Source of the DNA: a phage
DNA length: 64,000 bases
Strand: one strand, 5' to 3'
Sequence record: PX423614.1
Below, piece after piece: positions 15,701 through 36,593 of this stretch; the stretch's first letter is position 1; each line of letters begins with the position of its first letter. The position numbers and the translations under genes are program-made. The notes under the pieces were generated by a model. The model did not search any database and had not been told where the DNA came from. It saw only the letters and a program-made list of their open reading frames with translations.

Positions 15701-15770
15701 TTGGTAGTAGATATGATAACTCTCAAATGTATATACAGTATAAGAATATTGTATGAAACAGGAGAGAGTT

Positions 15771-16100
15771 ATGTTAGATTTGAGTAAAGTGGCCCCGCCA
15801 TCTGAAGAGATTAGCAAAGCTAAAGTTATGCAGCAGTTCTATCATCGTGATATGCTTGGTCGTTATATCAAGAATCGTGATGTTGTTGCATGGTCTATTG
15901 GAAATCAAGGTTATCTTCTCAAAGTGTTGCAAGTTACTGGCTCAACAGCCAAGCGAGTCAAAGTCTATGACCCTGAAATGGGGCGTTCTAAATCAGTAGA
16001 CCCTCAGAATTGCATTGTTATCACACAACAGGTCATGGATAACATTGCTCGTAATGTAGCTAATTCAACTAACTTAGAAGGGGATGCACCTAATGCATAA
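15771..16100 (+). CDS. hypothetical protein (109 aa)
   Basis: ATG at 15771 with RBS AGGAGAG; within track ORF 15753..16100. Confidence 0.5.
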   Translation: MLDLSKVAPPSEEISKAKVMQQFYHRDMLGRYIKNRDVVAWSIGNQGYLLKVLQVTGSTAKRVKVYDPEMGRSKSVDPQNCIVITQQVMDNIARNVANSTNLEGDAPNA

Positions 16101-16659
16101 TAATGTCTTCGACTTACCTGAACTAACACGAGTGGGTTCTAGCAACCCATTCTCTACTACTGACTCTTCTATCTCTCGTCTTGAGGGAATGAATAAACTG
16201 ATTAGCGGTAACAGCTTAGAACACATCTTGTGTGGTGTGCAAGCTAACCTTGAACTTCTACACATCAAAGCAAAGAACTACCACTGGAACGTCTCTGGAG
16301 CTGGTTTCCAAGGTGTTCATGGTATGTTCGATGAGTTAGAAGATTATGCTCGTGAGGCAGGCGACCGAATAGCAGAGCGTATGCGCTTTCACTGTGTTAA
16401 AGTGGATGCTACTGCTAGTAACTATTTAGGTCATGCTTGGTTCCGAGAAGGTAACGCTGATCTCGACATGGACGGTATGCTTTCCGACATGTGCATGACT
16501 CTGATGTGTATCATTGAAAAGATGGACGAGTTTGATTCAGACTTGTGCACTTATCCAGTTGACCAGAGTATGCTTCAAGAAATTAATGAAGGTCTTGGCA
16601 AGTTCTGCTACTTCGTCAAGAGCAACATGTCCCACTCCAGTGGTGACGTGTCTTACTAA
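16093..16659 (+). CDS. Dps-like ferritin-fold protein
   Basis: NLELLHIKAKNYHWNVSGAGFQGVHGMFDELEDYAREAGDRIAERM matches the Dps signature H-x-YHWNV-G-x-F-x-x-H...FEE...D-x-x-AERI. Confidence 0.6.
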   Translation: MHNNVFDLPELTRVGSSNPFSTTDSSISRLEGMNKLISGNSLEHILCGVQANLELLHIKAKNYHWNVSGAGFQGVHGMFDELEDYAREAGDRIAERMRFHCVKVDATASNYLGHAWFREGNADLDMDGMLSDMCMTLMCIIEKMDEFDSDLCTYPVDQSMLQEINEGLGKFCYFVKSNMSHSSGDVSY

Positions 16660-16722
16660 TCAAACCTCCGCCCTGTCTCTTTGTTTAAGAGGTGGGGCGA
16701 ACTTCTTTATAAGGATATGAGT

Positions 16723-16902
16723 ATGTTTTCAGCAATCGTATGGTCTGTATGGGCAATTCTTGTTGGTGGTATCGTTTATCTGGCTCAGAAGCAGATGCTT
16801 AAAGAGAATCCGAATGATGCTAAACCTATTAAACATGGCAGCATTGCTCTGGTAATTTTCTCTGTTGTTATTCCTTTCCTTCTCCACCTGTTGACTGCAT
16901 AA
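16723..16902 (+). CDS. small two-TM membrane protein (paralogue B1)
   Basis: ATG 16723 with AAGGA RBS; two hydrophobic segments flanking KENPNDAKPIKHG. Confidence 0.5.
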   Translation: MFSAIVWSVWAILVGGIVYLAQKQMLKENPNDAKPIKHGSIALVIFSVVIPFLLHLLTA

Positions 16903-16911
16903 GGGTTTGAT

Positions 16912-17100
16912 ATGATTTCACTGATTGTGTGGGCCGTGTGGTCGTTAATAGTTGGTACTGTTATATATATATAAAGCTCGAAATTTAGCAATTAAAGAAA
17001 ACCCAGCAGAAGAGGATGTTAAAGCTATCAAGCTAGGTAGTGTTGTTCTGGTACATTTTGCTATAACACTACCTCTTGTTATTATTCTTTGTATGCTATA
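16912..17100 (+). pseudogene. interrupted paralogue of the 16723 membrane protein; reading frame broken at a (TA)6 tract
   Basis: MISLIVWAVWSLIVGTVIYI then TAA inside TATATATATATA (16962-16973); downstream +1-shifted frame encodes KARNLAIKENPAEEDVKAIKLGSVVLVHFAITLPLVIILCML, homologous to the upstream gene. Confidence 0.45.
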
Positions 17101-17291
17101 AGGAATCCAAAGAGTGAAACTAAACCTACCTGAAGAATTACAAGCACATGCCATTATCGTTAGTGGCTGTGTGATGGGTCTTGGTCAGACAAAGAAGATT
17201 GCTCATGACTTAGCAAAAGGTCAGTATAAATCTTTTATTGTTGTTCCTGCTACCCAGCGTCATATCAACCTGTTTATTAACAAGGAATAGA

Positions 17292-17567
17292 ATGAGTAAA
17301 GTAATTAAGTTTTATAGTAATTCATGTGCTCCGTGTGCAGCTATGGCTCCTGTGTTTAAGAAGGTTGTGGCTGACTATAGTGTAGAAGTTGAAGAAGTAA
17401 ATATCTCTGAAGGTGATGGTCGAGAGCGAGCCGTTGAATATGGTGTTCGCAGTATCCCAGCCTTTGTCGTCCCTGATAAGAACAGTGGTGCTCATTATAG
17501 TTTATCAGGTATGCAAACTGAATCTAATCTCCGTGCATTTTTAGACACGGCTCTGAAAGGTATTTAA
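17292..17567 (+). CDS. thioredoxin-like protein
   Basis: CAPC active-site motif in thioredoxin context (KFYSNSCAPCAAMAPVF...IPAFVV); RBS AAGGAA upstream. Confidence 0.7.
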   Translation: MSKVIKFYSNSCAPCAAMAPVFKKVVADYSVEVEEVNISEGDGRERAVEYGVRSIPAFVVPDKNSGAHYSLSGMQTESNLRAFLDTALKGI

Positions 17568-17568
17568 T

Positions 17569-17784
17569 ATGGAAAAGAAACCTTGGATTACTTTTTGGGT
17601 AGTTAAGTGGTTTAATTTTGATAGCACAATCCCTAGCCTCTCCTCGTACACAACACGGAGAGAGGCTCGCCGCTTTAAGCGAGCTTTAAAAATTGCTAAC
17701 ACTGGTGCTTCTAAGATCACAATCCAGAAAGGGATTGAAACAGAAAGTGGAAGCAATCTGATTTATAAAAAGATTTACTATTAA
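17569..17784 (+). CDS. small basic protein, paralogue family A member 3
   Basis: WVVKW...TRREARRFKRALK...KITIQK...KIYY. Confidence 0.5.
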   Translation: MEKKPWITFWVVKWFNFDSTIPSLSSYTTRREARRFKRALKIANTGASKITIQKGIETESGSNLIYKKIYY

Positions 17785-17799
17785 AGAATAGGTGCTATT

Positions 17800-18012
17800 A
17801 TGACTCAAGGAAAAGATGTGTATTTTTGGGCTGTTGTTTCTGAATATCCAGAGATGGAGTATCCAAGGGTTAACACGTGTGCTACTCGTAAAACTGCACG
17901 ATGCACTAAACGTGCCCTCAAGAAGATGGGTCGTGATTCGAAGATTTCAATCCACCGTGCATATATGACAGCAGCGGGTTTCATTGTAGTAACACCAAAA
18001 GTTTATTATTAA
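17800..18012 (+). CDS. small basic protein, paralogue family A member 4
   Basis: FWAVV...TRKTARCTKRALK...KISIHR...KVYY. Confidence 0.5.
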   Translation: MTQGKDVYFWAVVSEYPEMEYPRVNTCATRKTARCTKRALKKMGRDSKISIHRAYMTAAGFIVVTPKVYY

Positions 18013-18026
18013 GGAAGAGTTCAAGG

Positions 18027-18677
18027 ATGAATGAACAATTACAAGCAACACTAATTGAAGCAATGGGAAATGACAAAACCGTTGTTAACGCAGCTCGGGT
18101 TTCTTTTGGAGTCACTCGTGAAGGAGAGTTAAATGAACGTGATGAACGCCTTATCAAATTCCTTGCCAGAGAAAAACACTGTACACCATTCCGTCATCCG
18201 ACAATTAGCTTCCGATGCAAAGCGCCAATCGCAATTGCGAGGCAGCTGGGCAAGCATCAAGTTGGATTCTCGTGGAACGAAATGTCCCGGCGGTATAAAG
18301 ATGGAGCAGTTGAACTCTTCATCCCTAAAGAGATTTTTGAAAGACCTTCGGACCTCCATGCAGGTGCGGGGAATCTCCTCACCACAGGAGCACAAAACTC
18401 TGCACTAGTCCTGATTAATCGGGCATATGAAACAGCTCTTGAGTCATATGATGAGTTGATTAAGTTCATCGCTCCAGAGCAAGCTCGATTCGTACTACCT
18501 CAGGGAATGATCACTGAGTGGGTGTGGACAGGCTCTTTATATGGTTGGTCAGAGTTGTGTCGTCAGCGACTGTCCGACCATGCTCAGTATGAAGTACGAG
18601 TGTTCGCATCAACGGTCGATGAAGAGCTTCGTAAACTTTTCCCAATCTCATGGGACGCACTACGTGAAGCCCACTAA
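18027..18677 (+). CDS. thyX: ThyX-like flavin-dependent thymidylate synthase family protein with variant signature
   Basis: HCTPFRHPTISF and KHQ-x8-S...RRY resemble the ThyX H-x-S-P-F-EH and RHR-x7-8-S motifs, but RHR is replaced by KHQ. Confidence 0.5.
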   Translation: MNEQLQATLIEAMGNDKTVVNAARVSFGVTREGELNERDERLIKFLAREKHCTPFRHPTISFRCKAPIAIARQLGKHQVGFSWNEMSRRYKDGAVELFIPKEIFERPSDLHAGAGNLLTTGAQNSALVLINRAYETALESYDELIKFIAPEQARFVLPQGMITEWVWTGSLYGWSELCRQRLSDHAQYEVRVFASTVDEELRKLFPISWDALREAH

Positions 18678-18849
18678 AGTGTGTAGCTTCTGTCAAAAGC
18701 AGAAGCTTCTTATCAATTTCAAGCTGAACGAGGAAACAGGTTTGGGTCATGCTTTTTGTCATGATTGCAGGTACTACCTTGAACAGAAGCAACACATAAA
18801 CTGGTTGCATTACTACAAACCTAACACCTACAAGCACAAGGTTATCTAA
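18664..18849 (+). CDS. small Cys-rich (zinc-ribbon-like) protein, possible GTG start
   Basis: In-frame GTG at 18664 after the ThyX-like stop; CSFCQK...CHDC pairs. Confidence 0.25.
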   Translation: MKPTKVCSFCQKQKLLINFKLNEETGLGHAFCHDCRYYLEQKQHINWLHYYKPNTYKHKVI

Positions 18850-19329
18850 ATGAAAGCTATTTTTGAAGGAAGAGAATATGATGTTCCTGAGTGGACCAAA
18901 TACATAGCCCGCGATTGTGATAATCAGGTTTGGGCATATGGAAATACACGACCTATGTTTAATGAAAACACTGGCAGTTGGTCTAATATGTCAAAACTAC
19001 CGGGATATATTCGGTTGCTTGGTTCTTCTAGGCGTCCTGTAGGTTTCGCTGCTGACTCTCTTGTTGAGGTCGGTGTTGAAAAAGGGGTAGACAAGCCAGA
19101 AACAATTTGGGTATTGTCTTCGAGTACTCCAATCAAAGGGAGTCGTGGGATTTCCTTCTACGTTGAGCCTGTCGCTTACTTCAAAAAGAAGCCAACCACC
19201 AACTCTCTGATGTTAAAGAACATTCCTTATTCCCAAGTTGCTACTCTGTTAGATAATGGAACAGTGCTTGTTGAGAATAATGGGACAAATCAAATCTTTT
19301 ATGATTTAGAAGAAAGGGTTTTGGAATGA
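18850..19329 (+). CDS. hypothetical protein (159 aa)
   Basis: ORF track. Confidence 0.5.
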   Translation: MKAIFEGREYDVPEWTKYIARDCDNQVWAYGNTRPMFNENTGSWSNMSKLPGYIRLLGSSRRPVGFAADSLVEVGVEKGVDKPETIWVLSSSTPIKGSRGISFYVEPVAYFKKKPTTNSLMLKNIPYSQVATLLDNGTVLVENNGTNQIFYDLEERVLE

Positions 19330-19646
19330 TCAACAATAATACATTTAGGACTGGTAACGGAAATGAAATCAGTCCTGCTGAAGTGATTAAACGACACAGA
19401 ACACAGATGCTTATCCACTCCTATTTGTATTATTGGTTGGATGACCCAATCTGGTCTGACGATAAGTGGCAACAAGTGGCTGATGACTTAACCACCTTGC
19501 AAGAGATGTATCCTGAGCCTATTGGATTCTTCGATTCAGAGTTCAATGGATGGAATGGCTCCACTGGTATGCATCTTCCTCATGACGAGCGTATAGCTTG
19601 TATGGCTACTGAAGTATACCGTTTACATAAGGACAAATCAATCTGA
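19326..19646 (+). CDS. hypothetical protein (106 aa)
   Basis: ORF track; ATGA overlap with upstream gene. Confidence 0.5.
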   Translation: MINNNTFRTGNGNEISPAEVIKRHRTQMLIHSYLYYWLDDPIWSDDKWQQVADDLTTLQEMYPEPIGFFDSEFNGWNGSTGMHLPHDERIACMATEVYRLHKDKSI

Positions 19647-20562: not shown

Positions 20563-20609
20563 ACATAATGTATACTCCTTAGTGTACACTGATATGTTAA
20601 GGAGTTGTG

Positions 20610-20924
20610 ATGACCGATAAGGCGAAACGTGATTATGCACAAGAACGAAGAACTGCAATCGCAAGGGGTGAGACCGGCGTTGGTAGCAAGAGCGGAGATG
20701 CTCAGCGCCACCGTGCACGTCGCATCGTTGAAAAGCGCGATGGAAAAGCTGCTGTCCGAGGTAAAGATGTTGGACACAAACGATCAATCAAGTCGGGAGG
20801 TTCTAATGCGTCAAGTAACTTACGTGTTGAATCAGTCTCTCGAAATCGCTCGAACGGCGGCAAAAGTGGAGATCGTGCTGGAAAATCAGCAGGCGGTCGC
20901 AAAGGAGCTTTAAGCTCAAGTTGA
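20610..20924 (+). CDS. small basic Gly/Ser/Arg-rich protein
   Basis: Strong RBS AAGGAG then GTGATG; followed directly by terminator; an alternative-frame ORF 20629..20913 overlaps. Confidence 0.4.
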   Translation: MTDKAKRDYAQERRTAIARGETGVGSKSGDAQRHRARRIVEKRDGKAAVRGKDVGHKRSIKSGGSNASSNLRVESVSRNRSNGGKSGDRAGKSAGGRKGALSSS

Positions 20925-20928
20925 TATA

Positions 20929-20960
20929 AGGCTACCCATTTCGGGTGGCCTTTTCTTTTA
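20929..20960 (+). terminator. rho-independent terminator
   Basis: AGGCTACCC / GGGTGGCCT stem (one G-U), 5-nt loop, then TTTTCTTTT. Confidence 0.6.
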
Positions 20961-25871: not shown

Positions 25872-26096
25872 ATGATTTACGTTCACACCTATAAGATTGG
25901 AAAGAAAATAGTTGACCGAATTCACTATGATGAAGCGGAAGCTCAGGCTTCTCTAGCGGTTCTTGGTGGCAAGGTTAAGAATTACATAGAGGCTGATAAA
26001 CCGACTAAGGGCGTCCCTATTCTAGAGTATCTCGGGACAAACAACCCAGTAACAGCGATGACTGTTATCAACAGTAAACAAAGGGAGTTGCTATAA
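25872..26096 (+). CDS. hypothetical small protein
   Basis: ATG 25872 with AAGGA RBS; inside track ORF 25836..26096. Confidence 0.4.
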   Translation: MIYVHTYKIGKKIVDRIHYDEAEAQASLAVLGGKVKNYIEADKPTKGVPILEYLGTNNPVTAMTVINSKQRELL

Positions 26097-26299
26097 TGTC
26101 TAATGAATATATTATTAAAAATGATGCGACAGGTTTGTTTCAATTTATCACAGATGCGACAGATTATGGGCAACTTATCAACTTTGTAGAGCTTGCAAAG
26201 CTCAAGGAAGAAATTGATGCTTTATATGCCGATGAGCAATCTCGTCTCTTACAAGAATCCTTGAGTGGAGATTATATCTGCGATGGTTGCACTATCTAA
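26096..26299 (+). CDS. hypothetical small protein (67 aa)
   Basis: ORF track; start overlaps upstream stop. Confidence 0.4.
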   Translation: MSNEYIIKNDATGLFQFITDATDYGQLINFVELAKLKEEIDALYADEQSRLLQESLSGDYICDGCTI

Positions 26300-26450
26300 A
26301 CGGTATAAAGTCTGGCTAGACGAAGGGGCTGAGTATTCTGAGGGTTTTGGCTGGAGAGTTATTTTAGAAACAGACGATAGGGAGGAGGCTGAAACGAAAG
26401 CTGAATCCTTCAACTACTCATATTACGAGGACACATACGAGAATGGCTGA
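26265..26450 (+). CDS. hypothetical small acidic protein (61 aa)
   Basis: ORF track; overlaps neighbours. Confidence 0.3.
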   Translation: MEIISAMVALSKRYKVWLDEGAEYSEGFGWRVILETDDREEAETKAESFNYSYYEDTYENG

Positions 26451-27063
26451 AGTTTATTTTGCAGGTGATGGTCACCTAGGCCATCGTAACATCTGTAAAT
26501 TTAGGAAGAAGTTTAGTAGTATTGAAGAACATGATAAAGCTATCTTAGCAGCGTTTGATCATGTTACTAAACGCGATAAAACTTTCTTTACAGGTGACTG
26601 GGTGTTTGAGAAGTATGCACTTGATATTATCGCTGAAGTAAAGGGAGAGAAACATCTTGTCTTAGGGAACCATGACAGATTAGAACTTCTCCCTGATATG
26701 ATGAAAGTCTTTAGACACATCAGTGGTGATTATAAATACAAAGAATTTTGGGTAACTCATATTCCTATTCACTCTGATGAAATGAGAGGGAAGTATAATA
26801 TCTATGCTCATACTCATAATTCTACTATTAGAGATTGGAGATACTTTTGTACTTCAATGGAACAAATTGATTACAGAGCTGTGTCTCTGCAAGAAATTAG
26901 AAAAGAATTAGAAAGTAGGAAAGATTGGGTAGCTTCTTTATTACAAAAAGATTATCCAGTTACTGATAAAGTACAAGAGATGTTAAGCAAACAAGCAGAA
27001 TCTAACTTACCTTATCAGAGAACAGTAGAACAAACCAGTTTTAAAGGTCTTTTAGAATGGTAG
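26443..27063 (+). CDS. calcineurin-like metallophosphoesterase (Ser/Thr phosphatase-like)
   Basis: GDGHLGH, GDWV, GNHD and HTH motifs in canonical order. Confidence 0.65.
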   Translation: MAEVYFAGDGHLGHRNICKFRKKFSSIEEHDKAILAAFDHVTKRDKTFFTGDWVFEKYALDIIAEVKGEKHLVLGNHDRLELLPDMMKVFRHISGDYKYKEFWVTHIPIHSDEMRGKYNIYAHTHNSTIRDWRYFCTSMEQIDYRAVSLQEIRKELESRKDWVASLLQKDYPVTDKVQEMLSKQAESNLPYQRTVEQTSFKGLLEW

Positions 27064-27396
27064 AAGTTATTGTTTTAAGTTAAGTTTTCTTTTGATTTTA
27101 ATAGAGAATCAAAGTCCTAGGAGTCCTCAACCTAAATCAAGGATTTCCTTAATTCTCTATTTTTATCTCGCAGGTGTCTCCTGCCCTTCGGTACTTGCAA
27201 GGGTTACAATGATTGCCCAATATACAAGCCTGCAATAGCTTTACTAGCTATACCATATATACATTACTACTTGTCATTATCTACTACCAAAAAGGTTATA
27301 GTATAATAGAACCTTATCTGTATAAGTGTAATGTATATAGTATACAAACCGCTCAAAGAGAGCAACAATCTTAAATCTATATAAGGAAATATTAAT
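27064..27396. promoter_or_regulatory. long AT-rich noncoding region with inverted repeats and promoter-like elements (candidate promoter cluster / origin)
   Basis: 333-bp gap in otherwise tightly packed genome; TAGAGAAT...ATTCTCTA inverted repeat; perfect TATAAT at 27302-27307; two copies of the AATGTATATA-type motif in opposite orientation (27256-27266, 27328-27339). Confidence 0.4.
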
Positions 27397-28137
27397 ATGT
27401 CTATGATCCCTGAACTGTCTGTATCCCGTAAATCCAACTACGATGTAATCCCTGATGGTGAGTACGAAGCACGTATTGTTCGTGTTGTAGGTTTGGGTGT
27501 TCACAATCGTGACCCTTGGATTGACCCTAAAACCAAAGCAGTTACTCCTAAGAACCCAGCTTTCCGTATGGACTTAGCTTTTGAGCTGATTGGCGTAGAT
27601 GCAACAGGGACTGATAATGAAGGCAAACCTCTGGACCCTCGTCCTGCTTGCCAGTTTAAATCTTTTGATGTAAACCCACGAGCTAAGAACTCTGGTATTC
27701 TAAATCTGATTAAAATGATCGACCCAAGTGTTCAAGCACTGAAAGGTGATTTGGGTTGGTTTAAAGATATGCTGTTAGGTCAGCCTGTTAACATTCTGGT
27801 TAACTCTTACACCAATAAAGCTGGTGAGAAGAAAAACTCCATTAAAAGCATCACTCCAATCCCGACTAAATATCGTGACGCGGTAGGTGCTCCTCGTAGT
27901 GAGTTGATCTTCTTCGAACCATATGCTGAGACTGATGCTAACTTAGCTGCTTATCAAGCAATCTTCCCATTCCAACGTAACCTCTTGACTCAAGCTAATG
28001 ATGCTAAGAACATTCCTCTGGCTGGTCGTGAAGTTACCAAAGCTTCTGACACTGAACAGAAGGACGCAACTCCGAGTATCCCTACTATTAATGAAGAGCC
28101 GCAGTCTACCTTTGAAGAGGACGACTCTCCATTCTAA
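27397..28137 (+). CDS. putative single-stranded DNA-binding protein (T7 gp2.5-like)
   Basis: Acidic C-terminal tail ending in Phe (EEPQSTFEEDDSPF), as recalled for gp2.5; sits with replisome genes; fold not verified. Confidence 0.45.
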   Translation: MSMIPELSVSRKSNYDVIPDGEYEARIVRVVGLGVHNRDPWIDPKTKAVTPKNPAFRMDLAFELIGVDATGTDNEGKPLDPRPACQFKSFDVNPRAKNSGILNLIKMIDPSVQALKGDLGWFKDMLLGQPVNILVNSYTNKAGEKKNSIKSITPIPTKYRDAVGAPRSELIFFEPYAETDANLAAYQAIFPFQRNLLTQANDAKNIPLAGREVTKASDTEQKDATPSIPTINEEPQSTFEEDDSPF

Positions 28138-28159
28138 GAATCTCTCCTTGTAATAGCTT

Positions 28160-28182
28160 AGCCACCTTCGGGTGGCTTTTTT
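28160..28182 (+). terminator. rho-independent terminator with UUCG tetraloop
   Basis: AGCCACC-TTCG-GGTGGCT followed by TTTTTT. Confidence 0.7.
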
Positions 28183-28195
28183 CGTTGGAGTTAAA

Positions 28196-28543
28196 ATGGA
28201 AAACCTTAAACACACTATAGGTTTTATAGTCTTCATAGCTCTTGTTTTCTTTGGAGGTGTTAGGTTCGAGCAACTTCGAAATGACAGTAAAGCTCTTGAC
28301 CAAGAGAAGAAACAACAAGAGATAGAGATTGAGAGAGCTAAGGCTGCTGATGAAGTGGCTCAGAGAGTTCTGACTGGTTTATCAAACTGGAAGAAGAACA
28401 CGGAAACTATTTACAAAGAGATGCATTATGAAAAAACTAAGCCAGTTTTTTACAATGTGTGTGCTAGCGATGAGTATGTCAGCTTGTTCAACGAGCGACA
28501 ACAGCAGGCAGTTAGTGCCCTTACCAACAAACCTAAAAACTGA
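28196..28543 (+). CDS. putative i-spanin (Rz-like; N-terminal TM plus periplasmic coiled coil)
   Basis: RBS GGAG then ATG 28196; TM segment IGFIVFIALVFFGG; coiled-coil QEKKQQEIEIERAKAADE; overlapped by lipoprotein ORF. Confidence 0.45.
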   Translation: MENLKHTIGFIVFIALVFFGGVRFEQLRNDSKALDQEKKQQEIEIERAKAADEVAQRVLTGLSNWKKNTETIYKEMHYEKTKPVFYNVCASDEYVSLFNERQQQAVSALTNKPKN

Positions 28544-28688
28544 GTGTGATGTAGACCTCCCTTTACTTCAGAGTGGACAGGGAGTAGCACTTGCAACAAC
28601 ACTTGAGTGGTATCAGGATAATTATATAACCTGTGCTGCTAATCACAATGGTTTACTTAAAGCTCTCAAAGAGAGAGGGATACAATGA
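28428..28688 (+). CDS. putative o-spanin (Rz1-like lipoprotein) overlapping the i-spanin 3' end
   Basis: Signal sequence ending in lipobox-like MSAC; Pro-containing mature region; out-of-frame overlap with previous gene. Confidence 0.4.
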   Translation: MKKLSQFFTMCVLAMSMSACSTSDNSRQLVPLPTNLKTECDVDLPLLQSGQGVALATTLEWYQDNYITCAANHNGLLKALKERGIQ

Positions 28689-28909
28689 TAAGAGCAGAAC
28701 TTACAATACCAGAAGGCGTTACTCAACTTCATGCAGTATGGGAATACAACAATCAAGTTTGGGGACGAACCTTTAAGTTCTTTGTAGATGGAGATCAATC
28801 CTATTGGGCCTATTATGACTCTGAAGAAGATATGTGGATTAAGGTAAGTGGTATTCAGACAGCCATTCCTTGTCCTGACACAGCAATGTATCTATTCTGT
28901 GTAGCCTAA
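28685..28909 (+). CDS. hypothetical small protein (74 aa)
   Basis: ORF track; ATGA overlap. Confidence 0.4.
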   Translation: MIRAELTIPEGVTQLHAVWEYNNQVWGRTFKFFVDGDQSYWAYYDSEEDMWIKVSGIQTAIPCPDTAMYLFCVA

Positions 28910-28933
28910 CATAAAGTAAGTTAAGGACGACTT

Positions 28934-29584
28934 ATGAAGAAGAAGACAACACCCACACGCTATCGTATTCATGGCATTCCTATTAAATATTATCCAACCT
29001 TCGATGAATTTTATCGAGAGAACTGGAAAGTTGTGCATAAGTATTTTATGTATGACATTAAAGATTATCACGAGGCAGAGGATGTTGCTCAGGAAGTGTT
29101 ACTGAACGCTTGGCGTTTTGTATTTGCAAAGCAAGAAGAACTTCTGCTCACTGATGAAAAAGATATTGAGCACATGACTTATCGTGTCAAGAATATCATC
29201 TGGTCGATTCGTTCTAATCGTCAGACAGTTGGAGACCGACGTATCTACTCTATTCCAGAAGCTGATATGTTTAGACCTCCTGAGATGAATTCATGGGAAA
29301 GTCCTTTAGAGATTGCGATGGATAAGCATGATTCTACTGGAGACCCGTTCTTGGAATCTAGAATCTTTTTCTTCTTCCAAGACCTGAGTGACATTATGGA
29401 AAACCGTAAGATGGCAAGCATGTTCTCAATGCTCTTTCTCGGCATCCCACATGATCACATCCAGCAAGAGTTGGGAATTTCACACGGAACCTTCTATCGT
29501 CGTTATTCAGAGAATCGTGATCTGTATGAAGCGGTAGTAGAGAAGCACTTTGATAAAGAAGATCTTCAAGGGATGATTCAATAA
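28934..29584 (+). CDS. putative ECF-like sigma factor
   Basis: [17 protein letters not shown] resembles sigma-70 region 2; C-terminal [13 protein letters not shown] resembles region 4 HTH. Confidence 0.45.
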
Positions 29585-30180
29585 TGAGTAAACCATTAGT
29601 AGTAATTCTGAATGGACCACCGGGTTGTGGTAAAGATACAATCGCTAATTCTTGGTTAGAGAAAACACTTGGTAACACCGAGTTTAGGCCGCATGTAAAG
29701 GCTTTTAAGGAGCCTATGTATCGAGTGGCTGCTGCTGCATTAGGTCTACCTCTTTATGAGTTCATGGAGCTGTACAACGACCGTGAGTGGAAAGAACATA
29801 GCCGTCCTGAATGGGACGGTAAGTCAGTTCGAGACTTGATGATTGCAACTAGTGAGAACTATCTGAAGCCCATGTTTGGTGAGACCTGCATGGGTAAACT
29901 TGCTGTTAGCAGTATTCAACAACGCACCCCAACACAGAATGATGTTATTGTATTCTCTGACGGTGGGTTTAAAGCAGAAGTTGAAGAACTGGAAAAACAT
30001 TTCCATGTTCGAGTAGTTCAGATTCTCCGAGATGGATGCTCCTTTGAAGGGGACTCCCGTTCTTATATCGAAGGAATAAACCTACCAACCTACCTCCTCT
30101 TTAATGACCGTTCTGTAGAAGAGGCAGTGGAGGATTTGGAGTGGATTATTGAGGGGACACGGAGAGGTCTCTATGTCTGA
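29584..30180 (+). CDS. P-loop nucleotide/nucleoside kinase (dNMP kinase-like)
   Basis: Walker A ILNGPPGCGKDT near N-terminus; size and position like phage dNMP kinases. Confidence 0.6.
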   Translation: MSKPLVVILNGPPGCGKDTIANSWLEKTLGNTEFRPHVKAFKEPMYRVAAAALGLPLYEFMELYNDREWKEHSRPEWDGKSVRDLMIATSENYLKPMFGETCMGKLAVSSIQQRTPTQNDVIVFSDGGFKAEVEELEKHFHVRVVQILRDGCSFEGDSRSYIEGINLPTYLLFNDRSVEEAVEDLEWIIEGTRRGLYV

Positions 30181-30994
30181 TGTAGTCTATCCTGAAGTAG
30201 CAATTGTGGATGCAGATGTTCTACGGTATGAAGTTGGTGCTCTTACACAAGAGCATCCATTCCTAGATACAGGTCGTGTTCCGGTTGATTATGGATTCTT
30301 AATTGAACGTCTCCAACACAAAATTGATGTAATCATTGCAAGGTCAGGTTGTGAGAAAATAATCTTTTACTTCAGTGAAGGTGGTAATTTTCGGTTTGAT
30401 ATTGCTAAGCAGCAAGGTTATAAAGCTAATCGACCACCGGGAGAAAGACCTCACCACTGGCAAAATGTTAGTGACTACATTAAAGAGAATTACGAATACG
30501 TAGAAGTTTTTGGGAGAGAGGCAGATGATGCCTTAGCTGAAAGACAGAGACGTGATAAGAACACTATCATTTGCACCCGTGATAAAGACTTGTTAATCAC
30601 TCCCGGATGGCATTACCGTTGGGCTTGCGGGGAGAGACAGAAAGAGGTACCTCCTCATTATGTATCAGAGGAAGTAGCATGGCAGAACTTCTTCTACCAG
30701 ATGCTGATCGGGGATAGCACAGATAATATTCCCGGATGTGGTGAGAAGGTTGAAATGATGTGGGGTGGCAATCTAGTAATGCGTCGTAAAGGCATTGGTA
30801 GTAAGGCTGCAATCAAACTTATTGAGAAGGTATTCGATAAGTGGACTCTTTATCATATTATACGAATGGAATACTATAAAAGGTTCGAGGAAGAAGCAGA
30901 AGATAAGATGTTAGAAAACGCTCGATTGCTCTTCGTTGGACAAGCTGAAGGTGACCTCTTTGATTGGTCATGGTTAGATAAAACTTGGGAATAA
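30173..30994 (+). CDS. 5'-3' exonuclease / flap endonuclease (T7 gp6-like)
   Basis: ATG 30173 overlapping upstream stop; acidic clusters and YKANR motif typical of FEN-type 5' nucleases. Confidence 0.65.
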   Translation: MSDVVYPEVAIVDADVLRYEVGALTQEHPFLDTGRVPVDYGFLIERLQHKIDVIIARSGCEKIIFYFSEGGNFRFDIAKQQGYKANRPPGERPHHWQNVSDYIKENYEYVEVFGREADDALAERQRRDKNTIICTRDKDLLITPGWHYRWACGERQKEVPPHYVSEEVAWQNFFYQMLIGDSTDNIPGCGEKVEMMWGGNLVMRRKGIGSKAAIKLIEKVFDKWTLYHIIRMEYYKRFEEEAEDKMLENARLLFVGQAEGDLFDWSWLDKTWE

Positions 30995-31004
30995 GGATAT
31001 TATA

Positions 31005-31196
31005 ATGGGTAAATTTGACTATCGTTCGTATGATGAAAACTCCTCTACTCGTGAATCTCGTAAAGATCAAAAGATTAAGCACCAAGCATTTGATCGTCGC
31101 ACAGGTCGTATCCCTCGTGCTGATAAAGAATCACACCGAGTCAATAAACGCATTTGGGAAGACGCTGATATGGATGTAGGTTATGGCGAAAGCTGA
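31005..31196 (+). CDS. hypothetical small basic protein (63 aa)
   Basis: ORF track. Confidence 0.4.
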   Translation: MGKFDYRSYDENSSTRESRKDQKIKHQAFDRRTGRIPRADKESHRVNKRIWEDADMDVGYGES

Positions 31197-31587
31197 GAAG
31201 ACAAGATGCTCTGGTCAGTGGACTGAAGCACGTTATAACTCCTTCATTAAGTCAGGGATTCGTTCTCTGACTAGGAAATGGAAACCTATGTTTGATTCTC
31301 TCAAAGAAGCTCAGACAGAACGTAAAATCAACCCTAAAACTGGCAAACTGGCAATGCACTATAAGTGTGCTATGTGTGGTAATGATTCTCCTCTTAAAGA
31401 CGTAGCAGTAGACCATATAGAGCCTATTGTTCCAGTGGACCATGAAGCTACTTGGGATGAAATCATCGAGAGGGCTTTAGTTGAGAAAGATGGTTTTCAA
31501 GTCTTATGCAAAGAGCCTTGCCATAAGATAAAAACTAAGGAAGAGAATGATGCAAGACGCGAATTTAAAAAATCTAGAGACTCCTGA
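31183..31587 (+). CDS. HNH endonuclease
   Basis: CAMCGN...DHIEPIVPVDHEATWDE...LCKEPCHKIKT HNH-like zinc/His-Me finger. Confidence 0.55.
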   Translation: MAKAEKTRCSGQWTEARYNSFIKSGIRSLTRKWKPMFDSLKEAQTERKINPKTGKLAMHYKCAMCGNDSPLKDVAVDHIEPIVPVDHEATWDEIIERALVEKDGFQVLCKEPCHKIKTKEENDARREFKKSRDS

Positions 31588-31849
31588 AGAAAGAGAAGTC
31601 TTTGAATCTATGAACAAGGAAAACACACATGATCAAGTATCTACGAAACAAGTTCTTCGCTTTAGCTATCGTAATTGGAGAGGCGAAGTTGCAGACCGCT
31701 CCGTTATTCCTTTACGAACCTCAGTTGCTTCTTCCCGTTATCATAATGGGGGCAAACCTTGTTGGATAATGACCGCTTGGGACAACGACAAGAACGACAT
31801 TCGAGAGTTCAAACTCTCTGATATTATTAAGTATTATGATTTAATCTAG
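31547..31849 (+). CDS. hypothetical protein (100 aa)
   Basis: ORF track; last gene of + block. Confidence 0.4.
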   Translation: MMQDANLKNLETPEEREVFESMNKENTHDQVSTKQVLRFSYRNWRGEVADRSVIPLRTSVASSRYHNGGKPCWIMTAWDNDKNDIREFKLSDIIKYYDLI

Positions 31850-32029
31850 GAGATTTTATGATTGAAGAAGAAAATTGGGATGTATGACGAATTTGATGGA
31901 TTCTAGTAGCCTTGGGTTTTCTCTTTGTTCTAATAGTTCCTATTAAGAGTAAGGACACACCCCTACTGTACAGTAGATATGGCAAGAGAAGTGATAAAGG
32001 TTTGATATAAAACGTCGAACCTGTATCTA

Positions 32030-32079
32030 GAAATAAAGAAGCCCCCTTCCTTTTTACAGGTTGGGGGCTTTTCTTGTTT
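32030..32079. terminator. bidirectional rho-independent terminator between convergent gene blocks
   Basis: AAGCCCCC...GGGGGCTT stem with inner CCT/AGG pairs, T-rich runs on both sides; immediately 3' of the 1481-aa gene stop (32078-32080). Confidence 0.6.
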
Positions 32080-35000
32080 ACTCCTTAGCTCGAACTCTAA
32101 CACGAAGTTTAGCTTGACGCTTACTTCTCTCCAACTTGTCAGACAGAGAACCACGTTTGACTTTCAACTCTCCCTCGTCATTATACTTCTCCAAGAACTG
32201 TAAATACTCTTGTCGAGTAGTTGTCTTGTAAGAAGGAATCTTAGCATTAGGATTCGCTTCAATCACACGTCTAATCTTAGCTACATCATCCCTCCCTAAA
32301 AGTTTCCCTTTAGCTTGTTCTGCTGTAGAACCAAAGATTTTCTCAAGTGCTCGAGATTTGTTACCACCTGCTGAAGCAGCACCAAGTTTCGCAATAGCAG
32401 AATAATCATCAGCACTAAACCAAGCCACTGGATTATCTCCATAACGTTTCTTGTTCTCAGCAGCAGTCTGTAGAGCACGCACAAATCGACGGTTGTTACC
32501 AGCCTTATCTGCACCATGAACCCTATCTAGAACCTCTGCAACACTCGCCAACTCCTGCAAGTCTTTCCCTTCAATAAAAGCTTTCTCTGCTTTGTTAGCA
32601 AAGTCATCTTCCTGCTTCTTAATACTTTCAAGAATATCAGAGTTAGCCTGAGATCTTTCATCCTCAGGTAGAGCCGAACGAATCTTCTCCATTTCTTTCT
32701 CTTCATCTAAAAGTTTCTTAAAGTCAGAATCAACTTTACGAGCATCTTCGATAGCTTTTGATGTTTCTGCATCAAGGTCAGAAGCTTTCCCATCTGCATC
32801 ACCAGTTGCCTTAGCAATCTCTCTTTCGATTGGAGTAGCTGTTTCATACTTCTTAACAAACTTCTCTACGTCAGATTCGATACGAGCACGAGCATTCTGA
32901 TGTTCCACTGGAGTCATAGGTTTCTCTAACAAAGCATACCGATTGTCCATATAAGAACCAGCATACGCTTCAGCATCCTCCCTAGAAACCCCCTTCTCTT
33001 CCAGAGTATTGACTAAACGCTTATGAATGTCATCACGTTGACGTTGAACTGCCATTAGGTCATTCTCTCGTTCCTGAGCTTCTTTCAGAGCCTTATCTCT
33101 CTTCACTCTAGAATCAATATCAAACCTACGGTTCATTTCCTCAGCCTGTTCATACATCCTATTCCACTTAGCCTCACGAGCATCTTCCTCTGCTTCGGTC
33201 AAACGACGTTTGCGATCGAGATAATCACTCTCAGCGTTGTGAATACGTTCAATAATACTACGGAAACGCTCTGGTGGTACTGGAGAGTTTTTATCGTGGT
33301 GAGCAGCAAGCTGTTTCAAAGTACGACCTTCCTGAGCTTCTCTGACACTTTCAGGCAATTCTTTGAACATCTTCTCCATCTCGGATTTCTGAGCCGCTAT
33401 AGCTTCCAAGGACTGCTTTTCAGCTTCCATAGCTGCCTTGGCATCATTACGAGCCTTAGCTCTGTTACGGAGCGTCTCAAGACGTTCTTGACGTGCTTGC
33501 AAGTGTTTAGCCGCTGCTTCGTATTGAGAGTTCTTGTTAGCCTTGTTGAACATGTTAACTTCTCGGTTATAGGTATTAATAAACCCATCCCACACATCCT
33601 TCATTTGACCAACTTCCAAAGCCTCAACCCTTCCAGCTTTCTCTGAAGATTTAAACTTACTCTCCACAAAGTCTTCCATGATCTTACGCATAGCATCTTT
33701 CTGAGCAGGACGTAAAGGTTCTGCATCAAGCAGTGTACCAATTTCATCCTGAAGCTCTTTCTTCTGATCTACCAGTTTAGGAGCATCTTTCTTGTCAAAC
33801 GCTTTATTCTCTTCCAGAGCCTCTCGATAGAGACGGTCAAATTCATCATCTCTCTGTTTCTGATATAAACGTTCAGCTCTTCGTTTCAGTGAATCTAGGC
33901 TTGTGACGTTTCCACCCAAACCCTTCTCTTCAGCACGTAAAGCCTTAGTAGCAATATCAGAAGGCAATCCACGCTCTTTTACCCAATCAGCAAAAGAAGA
34001 ACGAACATGTTGAGACTTAGCAGAAGCAATACCTTGCTGTGAAGCTAGCTGGTTTCTAGCCATCTCTTCATGACGCTGTGTGTTGTTTGCTTGGTCTTCC
34101 TGACGGATACGACGCATAAGCTCTTTAGGGTCTCCTTTATAAGAAAGGAAGTTTTCCGCAGTAGCTTTAGCTTTAGCAGCAGCCGAATACAAAGAACGAG
34201 CAAATCGGTCAGCACGATCTTTTGTTGCCTGACGGGCAGCAGTTGACATGGAAGCCAGACGCTCTACACCGAGTGATGGTTTAACAGGCTCAGGAGCCTT
34301 CTCAGGAGCTTTAGGCGCACGAGCAGGTAATGGCTCAGGTTTCTCTTGAGGTTCCTCTACGGTCTTCTCAGGAGCTTCTTTGGCACGTTCTGCTTCCTCT
34401 GCTTCTTGACGTTTCTTCGCTTCTGCTACAGCCCTGCGCTGAGCTACTAGCTCTCTCGCTGTCAATGCTTCTTGCTGTGGTTCAGGTTCTGGAGTAGTGC
34501 TTTCTTGAGCCTGAGCAGCTTCCGCTTCTTGACGTCTAAGTTCTGCTTGTTGTAGAGCACGTCTTTGAGCAACTAAATCTCTTGCCGTAAGAGGTGTTTC
34601 AGTAGGAGCTGGAGAGGAAGGAATTTCTTCCGTCACAGTAGTAGCAGAAGGCTCCTCACGAACCGGTTCGGAAGGGGCATCATTTTGGGTACGGAATTTG
34701 ATGTCTTCTGTGGTTGGTTCTTCTTCCATTTTTGCTCTTGCTTCTTCGGCTTGAGTTCTAGCTCGTTGTACTTCTAAATCCGCTCTAGCCAAAGAACGAA
34801 TAGCTTCACTATTAGCTGACTGTTGTTTCTCTCGTTGAGCACGAGCACGGTCAGAAGTGAAACGATTAAGCACATACTTAGCCGCACCAAGAGGATTCTT
34901 AACCAAGACAGGAGCTGGAGCTTCACGGAAACCATCATCAGTCAGAGAGGTCCAACCGCGATCTTGGTTGCTCATGAACTTAGCCGTGTTATTTAAAGTG

Positions 35001-36523
35001 AAAGCATCTTGAATAGGATTAAACCCTTCAGGCATACCTTTCAGTTTCTTCAACCCACCAATAGCCTTCTTCATCTCTGGAGAAACATTCTCAGAGAGTT
35101 TTTGCAACTGAGTAGCTTTATCAATAAAGTTATTTAGATCTTCACCATCACGAGCTTTGAAACGATTTGCTTCACTGTAGAAGGTCTTGTAGGCATCAAT
35201 AAAGTCACGGTCAGCTTGTGTACGATTCTTAATGTCAATAGCACTACCGGTAAAGTCACCACTCGCTCGGAGAGCTACTAACTCTCGGTCTAGGTTGTCT
35301 AGAACATCAGTAAGAGCTTTGGTGTTGTCTTTAGTGTAGTCAGCCATCGCATCTTTCATTGCTACAGCTTGTTTCTGGTTATACTCATTGTCAGCAAAAG
35401 CTTTACCTTGAGTCTTCTTAGGAGAAGCTAAAGGATTGAGACCGGGAACGTTAGAACTGTCTTTCTGAACAGTAGCAGCCTTCTCTGCACGACTTTGGTC
35501 TGTATTTAAGATGCGCTGAACAGCAGGAGAATCCATAGCAACTGCATCAGTGATACGGAAACCGTTTTCATCTAGAAGATTTAAAGCAGAAGCAGCATTA
35601 GCATTCTCAGCTTTAGAGTAGGCTTCACGAAGTTCATCAGCATTAGCAGCTTTACGAATCACTTCATCTTCAGCAGCAATGTCAGTTTTAACATGCTCAG
35701 GAGTACGGTCAAATACTTGAGGGCTAGAACGACTTATCAATCCATGAACCCCACCAATTGCCCCACCATAAGCAGCACCAAGTGCACCCTCTTCAATAGC
35801 CCCTTCTAAGACATTAGCGAGAGTAGTATCATCCCCATGTTTGTTCTGAGCTTCAGCAGCACCTACAATAGCACCACCCTTAGCACCCGCAACTGCGTTG
35901 GAAGCTACGCTCTGTCCTACACGACCAAGAGTCGTAGAAGCTGTACCAGTCATACCCGGAAGGATTTTCTGAGCAGCGTAGTTAGCGCCACCAACAAGAG
36001 CAGCATCCAGAACTGATTTGTCTTCATCTTCTTTTGGAGTTTGGTCAGCATATGCACGACCTGTTTCACGAGCCGCAATAACAGCAGCAGCAACAGCAGG
36101 GTTTGCAACTGTCAAACCAATATCAGCAGCAACTCCAGCATACTGACCAGCTGTTTTACCAAAACCATCTTCTATCTTAGATAAGCGCTCTTCCAACAAT
36201 TGCTTGGAGTTCTCTTGAATACGCTTACCGTAGCTTGTTTCTGAACCAGTTAAGTTTTCACCAATCTCTACCAGCCCACCTATACCTCTAGCAGCACTAG
36301 CTGCAATGTTAGCACCACCAGATTGAAGAGCGTTAGACACACCTTGAGCAAACTCCCCAATAGCACCTCGTTCTTCTTGTTGTGGTTGCTCTTGTGGTTG
36401 AGTCTCAGGAATAGTGCCCCCTGCTGCCTTGTATTGTTCTCTCATTTGAGCCTGTTGCTCTGGAGAGGCATTCAGATACGCAGGAGCTTTGGAAGCTTCT
36501 TCCCACGATTTTAAATTAGCCAT
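32078..36523 (-). CDS. large alpha-helical virion protein (1481 aa), likely internal/ejection or tape-measure-like protein
   Basis: Very long ORF rich in Ala/Glu/Lys/Gln with coiled-coil character; last gene of structural block. Confidence 0.7.
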   Translation of the reverse strand: MANLKSWEEASKAPAYLNASPEQQAQMREQYKAAGGTIPETQPQEQPQQEERGAIGEFAQGVSNALQSGGANIAASAARGIGGLVEIGENLTGSETSYGKRIQENSKQLLEERLSKIEDGFGKTAGQYAGVAADIGLTVANPAVAAAVIAARETGRAYADQTPKEDEDKSVLDAALVGGANYAAQKILPGMTGTASTTLGRVGQSVASNAVAGAKGGAIVGAAEAQNKHGDDTTLANVLEGAIEEGALGAAYGGAIGGVHGLISRSSPQVFDRTPEHVKTDIAAEDEVIRKAANADELREAYSKAENANAASALNLLDENGFRITDAVAMDSPAVQRILNTDQSRAEKAATVQKDSSNVPGLNPLASPKKTQGKAFADNEYNQKQAVAMKDAMADYTKDNTKALTDVLDNLDRELVALRASGDFTGSAIDIKNRTQADRDFIDAYKTFYSEANRFKARDGEDLNNFIDKATQLQKLSENVSPEMKKAIGGLKKLKGMPEGFNPIQDAFTLNNTAKFMSNQDRGWTSLTDDGFREAPAPVLVKNPLGAAKYVLNRFTSDRARAQREKQQSANSEAIRSLARADLEVQRARTQAEEARAKMEEEPTTEDIKFRTQNDAPSEPVREEPSATTVTEEIPSSPAPTETPLTARDLVAQRRALQQAELRRQEAEAAQAQESTTPEPEPQQEALTARELVAQRRAVAEAKKRQEAEEAERAKEAPEKTVEEPQEKPEPLPARAPKAPEKAPEPVKPSLGVERLASMSTAARQATKDRADRFARSLYSAAAKAKATAENFLSYKGDPKELMRRIRQEDQANNTQRHEEMARNQLASQQGIASAKSQHVRSSFADWVKERGLPSDIATKALRAEEKGLGGNVTSLDSLKRRAERLYQKQRDDEFDRLYREALEENKAFDKKDAPKLVDQKKELQDEIGTLLDAEPLRPAQKDAMRKIMEDFVESKFKSSEKAGRVEALEVGQMKDVWDGFINTYNREVNMFNKANKNSQYEAAAKHLQARQERLETLRNRAKARNDAKAAMEAEKQSLEAIAAQKSEMEKMFKELPESVREAQEGRTLKQLAAHHDKNSPVPPERFRSIIERIHNAESDYLDRKRRLTEAEEDAREAKWNRMYEQAEEMNRRFDIDSRVKRDKALKEAQERENDLMAVQRQRDDIHKRLVNTLEEKGVSREDAEAYAGSYMDNRYALLEKPMTPVEHQNARARIESDVEKFVKKYETATPIEREIAKATGDADGKASDLDAETSKAIEDARKVDSDFKKLLDEEKEMEKIRSALPEDERSQANSDILESIKKQEDDFANKAEKAFIEGKDLQELASVAEVLDRVHGADKAGNNRRFVRALQTAAENKKRYGDNPVAWFSADDYSAIAKLGAASAGGNKSRALEKIFGSTAEQAKGKLLGRDDVAKIRRVIEANPNAKIPSYKTTTRQEYLQFLEKYNDEGELKVKRGSLSDKLERSKRQAKLRVRVRAKE

Positions 36524-36593
36524 AACGTCTCCTTATAAATAAAAATGTCCTACCTCCTATATACATTATAAGAGATAGGACTTAGGTCTTAGA

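Follow-up and report, generated by a model that had tools for sequence, protein, structure and literature searches.

The short motif that recurs upstream of genes on both strands of this phage DNA is very probably (about 0.93) the -10-like core that a phiEco32-like phage has in its middle and late promoters: tAATGTAtA, in which AATGTA occupies -14 to -9. Promoter elements of this type are already known and described. In phiEco32 this sequence is the consensus of six promoters, those of genes 6, 13, 26, 40, 58 and 68, which are read by E. coli RNA polymerase equipped with the phage sigma factor gp36 (the gp36 holoenzyme) and start transcription 6-8 nt downstream (PMC8948821, PMC4331800, PMC4281155). 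The phiEco32 protein gp79, an inhibitor of the sigma-70 holoenzyme and a co-activator of the gp36 holoenzyme, activates all six. The primary account of the gp36-dependent promoters is reportedly that of Pavlova et al. 2012 (J Mol Biol 416:389).

Phage identity and transcription proteins

The window, which is the whole stretch of 64,000 nt analysed here, is ~95% identical to the phiEco32-like phages Bas86, Bas87 and NC-B and related to 99 records of the phiEco32-like group. Judged by these matches, it is a phiEco32-like podophage of the subfamily Gordonclarkvirinae. The genome is laid out as in phiEco32, where one strand carries the early and middle genes and the opposite strand the late ones, and orthologues of both transcription proteins are encoded:

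28934-29584, + strand: phage sigma factor, gp36 orthologue (E = 1e-117 to PDB 9m7y chain F, full length)
9174-9416, + strand: gp79 orthologue (E = 8e-36 to 9m7y chain G; 75% identity)

The template, PDB 9m7y, is the gp36/gp79 structure of Xu et al. 2025. In the cryo-EM open complex on P68, bases A-14, A-13, T-12 and G-11 of AATGTA are recognised by the N-terminal domain of gp36, and the -35 contacts made by the C-terminal domain (G-37, A-34) are essential (PMC12276001). The sigma factor of the window is 80% identical to phiEco32 gp36 and keeps every DNA-contact residue (E79, H80, Y83, R84, W90, S91, S94, N95); the FYRRY segment (Y186/R187 of gp36) is conserved too, and the co-activator gp79 is common to both phages.

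Occurrence of the motif

The recurrence noticed in the initial annotation is real. Exact copies of AATGTATATA lie at 15726-15735 (+), 27256-27265 (-), 27330-27339 (+) and 36558-36567 (-), each in non-coding DNA; the expectation from dinucleotide shuffles is 0.14 +/- 0.40, and none of 100 shuffles reached four. The variant TAATGTATAC lies at 20566-20575 (+), as given in the initial annotation. The motif said to occupy 27328-27339 is indeed there, but its 12-mer TAATGTATATAG runs from 27329 to 27340, base 27328 being a G. A spacing of 30-60 bp upstream of start codons, if the count begins at the T of TAATG (in P68 an A) and ends at the probable start codon, holds at three of four sites (45 nt at 15725, 20566 and 36568) but not at 27329, where it is 68 nt.

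Looser patterns give 9 matches against 5.0 expected (AATGTATATA with one mismatch) and 8 against 3.2 ([TA]AATGTA[TG]A), and for these the count alone is weak: it is the position of the sites, not the number of loose matches, that decides whether the motif is real. Six of the 14 copies of AATGTAT fall in the 6% of the window that is free of ORFs of 60 aa or longer on the transcribed strand (binomial P ~1e-4). When a weight matrix built solely from the six mapped phiEco32 promoters is scanned over the window, its top seven matches are seven intergenic sites, comprising six orthologues of those promoters and a divergent copy, here called Pdiv. The core reads T or A followed by AATGTATA at five of the seven, TAATGTATT at one and TAATGTAGA at one. 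Enumeration of the motif relative to ORF starts, the check proposed when it was first noticed, thus finds the exact motif enriched and the sites intergenic; shuffle enrichment, intergenic placement and weight-matrix ranking together rule out a chance origin.

Several other matches were set aside. Those to [TA]AATGTA[TG]A at 4227 and 13266 (+), both within coding sequence, are taken as chance because the predicted starts would be too near or past the next start codon. The AATGTA copies at 17052 (-) and 63652 (-) both lie within small ORFs (<60 aa). The sequence cAATGTATc at 28885 (+), 49 nt 5' of the sigma gene, lies within the 3'-terminal part of an ORF, ranks below the top 16 in the weight matrix and has no phiEco32 counterpart at that position.

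Six orthologous promoters

The six orthologues comprise three middle promoters on the + strand and three late promoters on the - strand:

15703-15735, + strand: P68 orthologue, middle; -35 box GGTAGTAGATA (15703-15713), 11-nt spacer, -10-like AAATGTATATA (15725-15735)
20566-20575, + strand: P58 orthologue, middle; TAATGTATAC, weight-matrix score 17.3
27329-27339, + strand: P40 orthologue, middle; TAATGTATATA, ahead of the gene 40 homologue (27397-28137)
36557-36591, - strand: P26 orthologue, late; TAAGACC (36591-36585), 16-nt spacer, TAATGTATATAG (36568-36557)
53930-53961, - strand: P13 orthologue, late; TAAGACC (53961-53955), 16-nt spacer, TAATGTATT (53938-53930)
62430-62438, - strand: P6 orthologue, late; TAATGTAGA, gene 6 homologue from 62418

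In a site-by-site alignment with phiEco32 all six match, flanks included, and the genes downstream are 80-93% identical to gp6, gp13, gp26, gp40, gp58 and gp68; the core tAATGTAtA and the six genomic positions at orthologous genes are alike in the two phages. The earlier suggestion that the motif marks transcription-unit starts on both strands is supported, the sites being positional orthologues of mapped phiEco32 promoters. Four of the six had been found initially; P13 and P6, outside the range covered, had been missed. That the motif is a phage promoter element, as was also proposed, agrees with this orthology, with the top-seven weight-matrix sites and with the gp36 and gp79 orthologues encoded. 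What is observed in this phage itself is the identity in sequence, the orthology in position, the enrichment of the motif, and that gp36 and gp79 are both present and conserved.

At P68, transcription is predicted to start at ~15740, ahead of the gene 68 homologue from 15771 (gp68 91.7% identical), and its G-37 and A-34 agree with the gp36 C-terminal-domain contacts of PMC12276001. Across the sites, A-34 is present at 7/7 (read from the phiEco32 alignment), in agreement with the Y186 contact in the same paper. G-37 is found at P68, Pdiv, P58 and P6 (4/7), the base being T at P40 and A at P26 and P13; the literature contacts were tested on P68 alone. The gene 58 homologue starts near 20610 and has a terminator-like hairpin (20928-20952) just 3' of it. 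An invariant 5' leader, CCGCTCAAAGAGAGCAACAATC, comes after P40, and the gene upstream of its intergenic region differs between the window and phiEco32.

On the late strand, the gene 26 homologue (1481 aa) starts at 36523, downstream of P26. Sequence differences from the phiEco32 promoters are minor: P13 reads TAATGTATT in the window and TAATGTATA in phiEco32. The first ORF downstream of P13 is an HNH-endonuclease-like gene (53896-53384) inserted between the promoter and the gene 13 homologue, unlike the arrangement in phiEco32. The P6 element TAATGTAGA is identical to the P6 listed in the literature for phiEco32-subgroup phages. Terminator-like hairpins directly upstream of P13 (53992-53971) and P6 (62472-62454) would mark transcription-unit boundaries.

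The upstream box TAAGACC is common to the late promoters P26 and P13. A scan for it in IMG/VR and metagenomes returned the same phiEco32-like contigs and ~40 contigs taken as chance.

Could the motifs instead be host sigma-70 promoters, for instance of the extended -10 type, with no need for a phage sigma? The motif is AT-rich and has a TG ahead of TATATA, the SU10 genome paper gives the P68 equivalent sigma-70-like -35 and -10 regions too, and a weak 9/12 match overlaps P58 (20549-20576). Nonetheless, a scan for the sigma-70 consensus (TTGACA/TATAAT-like, 16-18 nt apart) finds nothing above 9/12 at the seven sites and a region-wide count near the shuffle expectation, and the invariant bases are AATGTA rather than TATAAT. 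For phiEco32, the literature attributes these promoters to the gp36 holoenzyme, with gp79 blocking sigma-70 transcription, and in vitro they are reported to give a specific transcript with the gp36 holoenzyme but none with the sigma-70 holoenzyme alone. In the structure, gp36 makes base-specific contacts with A-14, A-13, T-12 and G-11 (PMC12276001). Promoters for sigma-70 in place of gp36 are thus very improbable. The SU10 genome authors suggest that some middle sites may serve sigma-70 as well, and gp36 may therefore not be exclusive at every site.

A divergent seventh copy

The inverted copy beside P40 is organised as a promoter-like unit of its own:

27256-27289, - strand: Pdiv; -35 box TGGTAGTAGATA (27289-27278), 11-nt spacer, TAATGTATATA (27266-27256)

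Pdiv is most likely also a gp36 promoter, one that would make a structured non-coding RNA. Transcription from its predicted start, ~27251, would run to the left, with gene 40 behind it, and enter a non-coding stretch of ~160 nt. The unit is kept in 16 of 17 distinct relatives, and phiEco32 has a counterpart at 36705 (+). Across 12 distinct promoter-region sequences the -35 TGGTAGTA and the -10 TAATGTATA are invariant, with a spacer that varies in sequence and is fixed at 11 nt in length; invariant boxes around a variable spacer of fixed length are the signature of a bipartite promoter. A search of IMG/VR and metagenomes for the -35/-10 pattern recovered isolates already known, a single metagenomic contig of phiEco32-like type and, in unrelated coding sequence, three chance matches, and a metagenome scan for relatives found seven. 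No divergent copy was found in the distant relatives 7-11, Crifsvirus and Privateervirus, in which the intergenic region is just ~75-100 bp.

The initial annotation had offered an operator as the alternative to a promoter: a site for a phage DNA-binding regulator, with the inverted pair (27256-27267 and 27328-27339) forming one dimeric site. The pair is a perfect 12-nt inverted repeat with arms 60 nt apart, and copies of the motif recur beside transcription-unit starts. Such a distance between half-sites is, however, atypical of a dimer operator, each of the remaining five copies stands alone and points the same way as its downstream gene, and the protein known to read the motif is a sigma factor (PMC12276001). 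In ES17-type relatives an ORF of ~130 nt is inserted between the two copies and both are intact, so they are independent units, not halves of one dimer site. The operator is the least probable of the readings, with hardly any weight left to it.

The product that a promoter at Pdiv would give is the following:

27090-27251, - strand: putative non-coding transcript of Pdiv (MFE -45.1 kcal/mol, z = -3.0)

A 5' hairpin (27251-27235, ATAGCT-AGTAA-AGCTAT) begins exactly at the predicted +1. It is 97.9% paired, two of its pairs have compensatory changes, and three G-U cells pair on the - strand only. Beyond it lie a variable middle module and an invariant GCAGG/CCTGC hairpin. The putative transcript also spans the antisense of a long hairpin (27100-27161) that, with its T-run, resembles a + strand terminator; in the Pdiv direction no terminator with a T-run is evident. 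With Rfam 15, nothing reached the gathering thresholds anywhere in the window and nothing matched at E <= 1 within 26900-27500, and no tRNA or tmRNA was found for the putative transcript. Its trans-complementarity to other phage mRNAs is limited to 10-12-mers, roughly the chance level, and a literature search on antisense transcription in phiEco32 returned nothing relevant.

Pdiv could alternatively be no working promoter and instead a conserved by-product, such as a site where the gp36 holoenzyme is decoyed or parked, a component of a replication origin or an element with a + strand function. The copy, present in both the window and phiEco32, is missing from the published list of six promoters as the citing papers give it; it has no ORF in its direction and no evident T-run terminator, and one metagenomic relative (L022) carries A in place of G-11. 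The 26-28 kb stretch is also the lowest in G+C of the window (0.379); no iterons or direct repeats were found near 27.3 kb. Against this stand the invariant boxes and constant spacer length, a -35 box TGGTAGTAGATA shared with P68, whose -35 contacts are essential (PMC12276001), and a hairpin with compensatory changes and strand-specific G-U pairs that starts at the predicted +1. A non-promoter role at this one site is accordingly given appreciable weight, at somewhat under an even chance.

In the parts of the gp36 literature that deal with the system, no explanation of the distinction between middle and late promoters was found. A combined proposal is tentative, the odds being against all of its parts holding together: Pdiv would be an uncatalogued seventh gp36 promoter giving a non-coding RNA of ~100-160 nt with a covarying 5' hairpin, and the TGGTAGTAGATA box (P68, Pdiv) as opposed to the TAAGACC box (P26, P13) may aid middle versus late timing. 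If Pdiv does fire, its RNA might brake, as antisense, read-through from the early and middle operon; it could alternatively prime or activate replication in the manner of a T7-style transcript.

Proposed mechanism and known systems

The biochemistry and start sites proposed for this phage follow experiments on phiEco32, and gp36 dependence is carried over likewise because the transcription evidence belongs to phiEco32 rather than to this phage. Early in infection, the host sigma-70 holoenzyme would transcribe the early region on the + strand. The phage would next make gp36, an ECF-like sigma factor, and gp79, which is expected to displace sigma-70 region 4, shutting off host and early transcription, and also to stabilise gp36 on the core enzyme. 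The gp36 N-terminal domain would then read A-14, A-13, T-12 and G-11, with the DNA melted from -11, the C-terminal domain would make its contacts in the -35 region, A-34 among them, and transcription would start 6-8 nt downstream of the 9-mer. Three middle units would be expressed in this way from the + strand, ahead of the homologues of genes 68, 58 and 40, and three late units from the - strand: gene 6 onwards (terminase, portal, head), gene 13 onwards (tail, lysis) and the 1481-aa gene 26.

Salmonella phage 7-11 has gp47-dependent late promoters with the consensus GTAAtg-N16-aCTA (Lavysh et al. 2022). There too, a phage ECF-like sigma on the host core polymerase drives late genes, from promoters at comparable genome positions that include one upstream of the gene 40 homologue. 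In contrast, its consensus is bipartite and unlike tAATGTAtA, its sigma resembles gp36 over only ~50-60 N-terminal residues, it has neither a gp79 homologue nor a middle class, and the region ahead of its gene 40 homologue is ~100 bp with no divergent copy.

The middle promoters of T4 (MotA/AsiA), an analogy drawn by Xu et al., are similar in that one factor disables sigma-70 region 4 and a second supplies specificity in an early-to-middle switch. However, T4 remodels the host sigma-70, whereas a phiEco32-type phage replaces it with its own sigma, and neither the proteins nor the DNA motifs are related. Bacterial ECF (group 4) sigma factors share with gp36 the two domains (sigma-2-like and sigma-4-like), the reading of -10 and -35 elements, and bases flipped or stacked at the upstream edge of the bubble. 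They differ in that gp36 has AATGTA as its -10 where ECF factors usually have a CGT-type motif, in the compact and atypical sigma-4 that forms the gp36 C-terminal domain, and in the -35 sequence of gp36 promoters, which is just loosely conserved from one promoter to the next.

Significance

A blind reading of raw sequence recovered a real, experimentally defined class of promoter. The transcription map of the phage can now be annotated with six promoters, two junctions of terminator and promoter, and the genes of the sigma and its co-activator. Promoters of the gp36/gp79 type attract interest both in synthetic biology, as orthogonal parts, and in the placement of payloads in therapeutic Kuravirus-type phages, which is why exact coordinates are useful. 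To the gp36 system itself, the analysis contributes modest, testable additions: a conserved divergent promoter-like unit with a putative structured non-coding product, and the TAAGACC box of two late promoters.

Motif recurrence and the phiEco32 promoter class

Over positions 26000-37000 the window shares 95% identity with Escherichia phages Bas86, Bas87 and NC-B, and 99 records of phiEco32-group phages (subfamily Gordonclarkvirinae) match this region. Early and middle genes lie on the + strand as far as about 31.8 kb, late, structural genes follow on the - strand from 32.1 kb, and the sign of the GC skew changes with this strand switch at ∼31.8-32.1 kb. The accessible parts of the literature on phiEco32 describe six promoters that are read by E. 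coli core RNA polymerase with the phage sigma gp36 and precede genes 6, 13, 26, 40, 58 and 68; their single conserved element is tAATGTAtA, with transcription starting 6-8 nt downstream (PMC8948821; PMC4331800; PMC4281155). A 2025 cryo-EM open complex on the promoter of gene 68 (PDB 9m7y) gives the mechanism of promoter reading: within AATGTA, bases A-14, A-13, T-12 and G-11 are read by the N-terminal domain of gp36, whose C-terminal domain touches G-37 and A-34, and gp79, the sigma-70 inhibitor and gp36 co-activator, displaces sigma-70 region 4 and stabilises gp36 (PMC12276001).

The initial annotation had described a motif recurring upstream of genes on both strands, with coordinates that are right to within one base. 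The recurrence is borne out: the window has four exact copies of the 10-mer AATGTATATA, at 15726 (+), 27256 (-), 27330 (+) and 36558 (-), against 0.14 ± 0.40 in dinucleotide shuffles, 0 of 100 of which reach four, and a variant, TAATGTATAC, lies at 20566-20575. For looser patterns the counts by themselves are unconvincing (one-mismatch copies, nine in the window against 5.0 expected; [TA]AATGTA[TG]A, eight against 3.2), and it is position that carries the argument. Of the 14 AATGTAT copies, six fall within the 6% of the window that is free of ORFs of 60 aa or more on the transcribed strand (P about 1e-4). Position and orthology together exclude chance as the explanation.

The phiEco32 genome was scanned for sites, which were then aligned with those of the window. 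Each of the six published promoters has a positional orthologue, named here by its downstream gene, and these genes are 80-93% identical to gp68, gp58, gp40, gp26, gp13 and gp6.

Positional orthologues of the phiEco32 promoters in the window (position of the first A of AATGTA)
15726, + strand, P68
20567, + strand, P58
27330, + strand, P40
36567, - strand, P26
53937, - strand, P13, TAATGTATT
62437, - strand, P6, TAATGTAGA, the variant listed for P6

With a weight matrix derived from the six phiEco32 sites only, these orthologues and one divergent unit upstream of gene 40 are the top seven matches in 64 kb, and every match ranked below them lacks the AATGTA core. The window also encodes the regulators: a sigma gene at 28934-29584 (E = 1e-117 to 9m7y chain F), with 10 of 10 published DNA-contact residues of gp36 conserved, and gp79 at 9174-9416 (E = 8e-36). 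P13 and P6 are each immediately preceded by a terminator-like hairpin (53992-53971 and 62472-62454), in keeping with transcription-unit boundaries. Against a reading as sigma-70 promoters, none of the sites matches the sigma-70 consensus better than 9/12, and the invariant bases of the motif are those contacted by gp36. By homology, it is the phage sigma, not sigma-70, that would recognise the motif.

The promoter reading offered initially was thus right, since the sites are orthologous to gp36 promoters and both sigma and gp79 are encoded. Four of the six known promoters had been rediscovered; the two degenerate late ones, P13 and P6, had been missed. The motif is real and, judged by strong homology, functional; it corresponds to the known gp36 promoter element of the phiEco32 type.

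Upstream boxes

In P26 and P13, TAAGACC stands exactly 16 nt upstream of TAATGTAT (boxes at 36585-36591 (-) and 53955-53961 (-)), in unrelated contexts, one following a stop codon and the other a terminator. This arrangement has two matches in the window against 0.00 expected. phiEco32, KBNP1711, ECBP2 and one metagenomic phage have the same pair, two matches each, with varying spacers. P68 and the divergent unit carry TGGTAGTAGATA instead, and in our reading of the alignment A is found at -34 in 7/7 sites. TAAGACC may be a -35 element of the late class; no discussion of upstream boxes as the basis of middle versus late timing was found in the accessible literature.

The divergent unit and its predicted transcript

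The divergent unit, at 27256-27289 (-), contains the inverted copy of the initial annotation (27256-27266). It faces away from gene 40 and is a complete bipartite unit of TGGTAGTAGATA, an 11-nt spacer and TAATGTATATA, its upstream box and spacing identical to those of P68 in the alignment. Its phiEco32 counterpart, at 36705 (+), is not among the six published promoters, a list known via citing papers. Among 17 distinct versions of the P40 intergenic region gathered from phage records and metagenomes, 16 have the unit intact and one metagenomic sequence (L022) has G-11 changed to A. Across a set of 12 distinct promoter-region sequences, neither TGGTAGTA (-38 to -31) nor TAATGTATA (-15 to -7) changes, and the spacer varies in sequence but keeps its length. 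The unit is absent from more distantly related phages (7-11, Crifsvirus, Privateervirus), in which this intergenic region is only short.

The motif had alternatively been proposed as an operator, which the inverted pair formed by this unit and P40 might suggest. ES17-type phages have a small inserted ORF between the two, both of which are intact, so they are independent. An operator is not borne out, because an insertion can split the inverted pair and the remaining copies are single and oriented.

As a promoter, the unit faces left into about 160 nt without a plausible ORF, with a predicted transcript at 27090-27251 (-). The predicted +1 (27251) is also the first base of a 6-bp hairpin, 27251-27235. 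In eight variants, 97.9% of the hairpin cells are paired, with compensatory double changes at two positions (C-G/U-A/A-U at one, U-A/G-C at the other) and three G-U cells that would be C-A mismatches on the opposite strand. For the predicted 162-nt transcript the folding energy is -45.1 kcal/mol (z = -3.0). The middle of the transcript is one of two alternative modules in different relatives, and its 3' portion runs antisense to a long hairpin and T-run that looks like a + strand terminator ahead of P40. Searches returned no Rfam family, tRNA or convincing trans-target for the transcript and no iterons in the region. The unit is probably an additional gp36 promoter making a putative structured non-coding RNA.

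Genes and leaders near the promoters

An inserted 170-aa HNH-endonuclease-like ORF, 53384-53896 (-), with the motif ...INHKNGIKDDNRIENLEWCTQQEN..., separates P13 from the gene 13 homologue (52651-53394); phiEco32 has no such insert. The first five codons of gene 13 (MAMPD) and its ribosome-binding site now belong to this ORF, and the homologue restarts as MMPDVQ... Further upstream, a 567-aa ORF, 53997-55700 (-), and a 351-aa ORF, 55610-56665 (-), overlap by about 90 nt at the 3' end of the latter, which is a putative major head protein homologue from position and gene order only. Programmed frameshifts or extended capsid isoforms are reported for Kuravirus-like phages, and the overlap would fit either.

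The P58 leader, 20575-20606 (+), has a potential hairpin, ACTCCTTA...TAAGGAGT, that takes in the Shine-Dalgarno of the gene 58 homologue and is shared by phiEco32. Past this single gene there is a terminator-like hairpin (20928-20952). P40 appears to drive a single-gene unit, because a terminator-like hairpin (28160-28177) follows the gene 40 homologue. In the 5' leader of the latter, 27349-27370 (+), the 22-nt CCGCTCAAAGAGAGCAACAATC is invariant in eight aligned relatives, and the exact 24-mer AACCGCTCAAAGAGAGCAACAATC recovered seven metagenomic contigs.

Crifsvirus phages ECO319P1 (L030:1360-1460) and A24 (L031:1360-1460) have cacTAATGTATAgtg ahead of the gene 40 homologue. These phages encode a sigma of the 7-11 type (78% identity to gp47) that has only an N-terminal stretch in common with gp36; cacTAATGTATAgtg may overlap the 'aCTA' element found in promoters of the 7-11 type, or may be an ancestral motif that was retained. 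In the window, cAATGTATCT at 28885-28894 (+) lies 49 nt upstream of the sigma gene, within the 3'-terminal part of the ORF before it, and has both G at -37 and A at -34. As a site for autoregulation of the sigma gene it is a weak candidate, and phiEco32 has no counterpart at that position.

Significance

As stated, the main motif finding adds little that is new, since the promoter element is known. The divergent unit and the TAAGACC box of the late promoters are modest leads.
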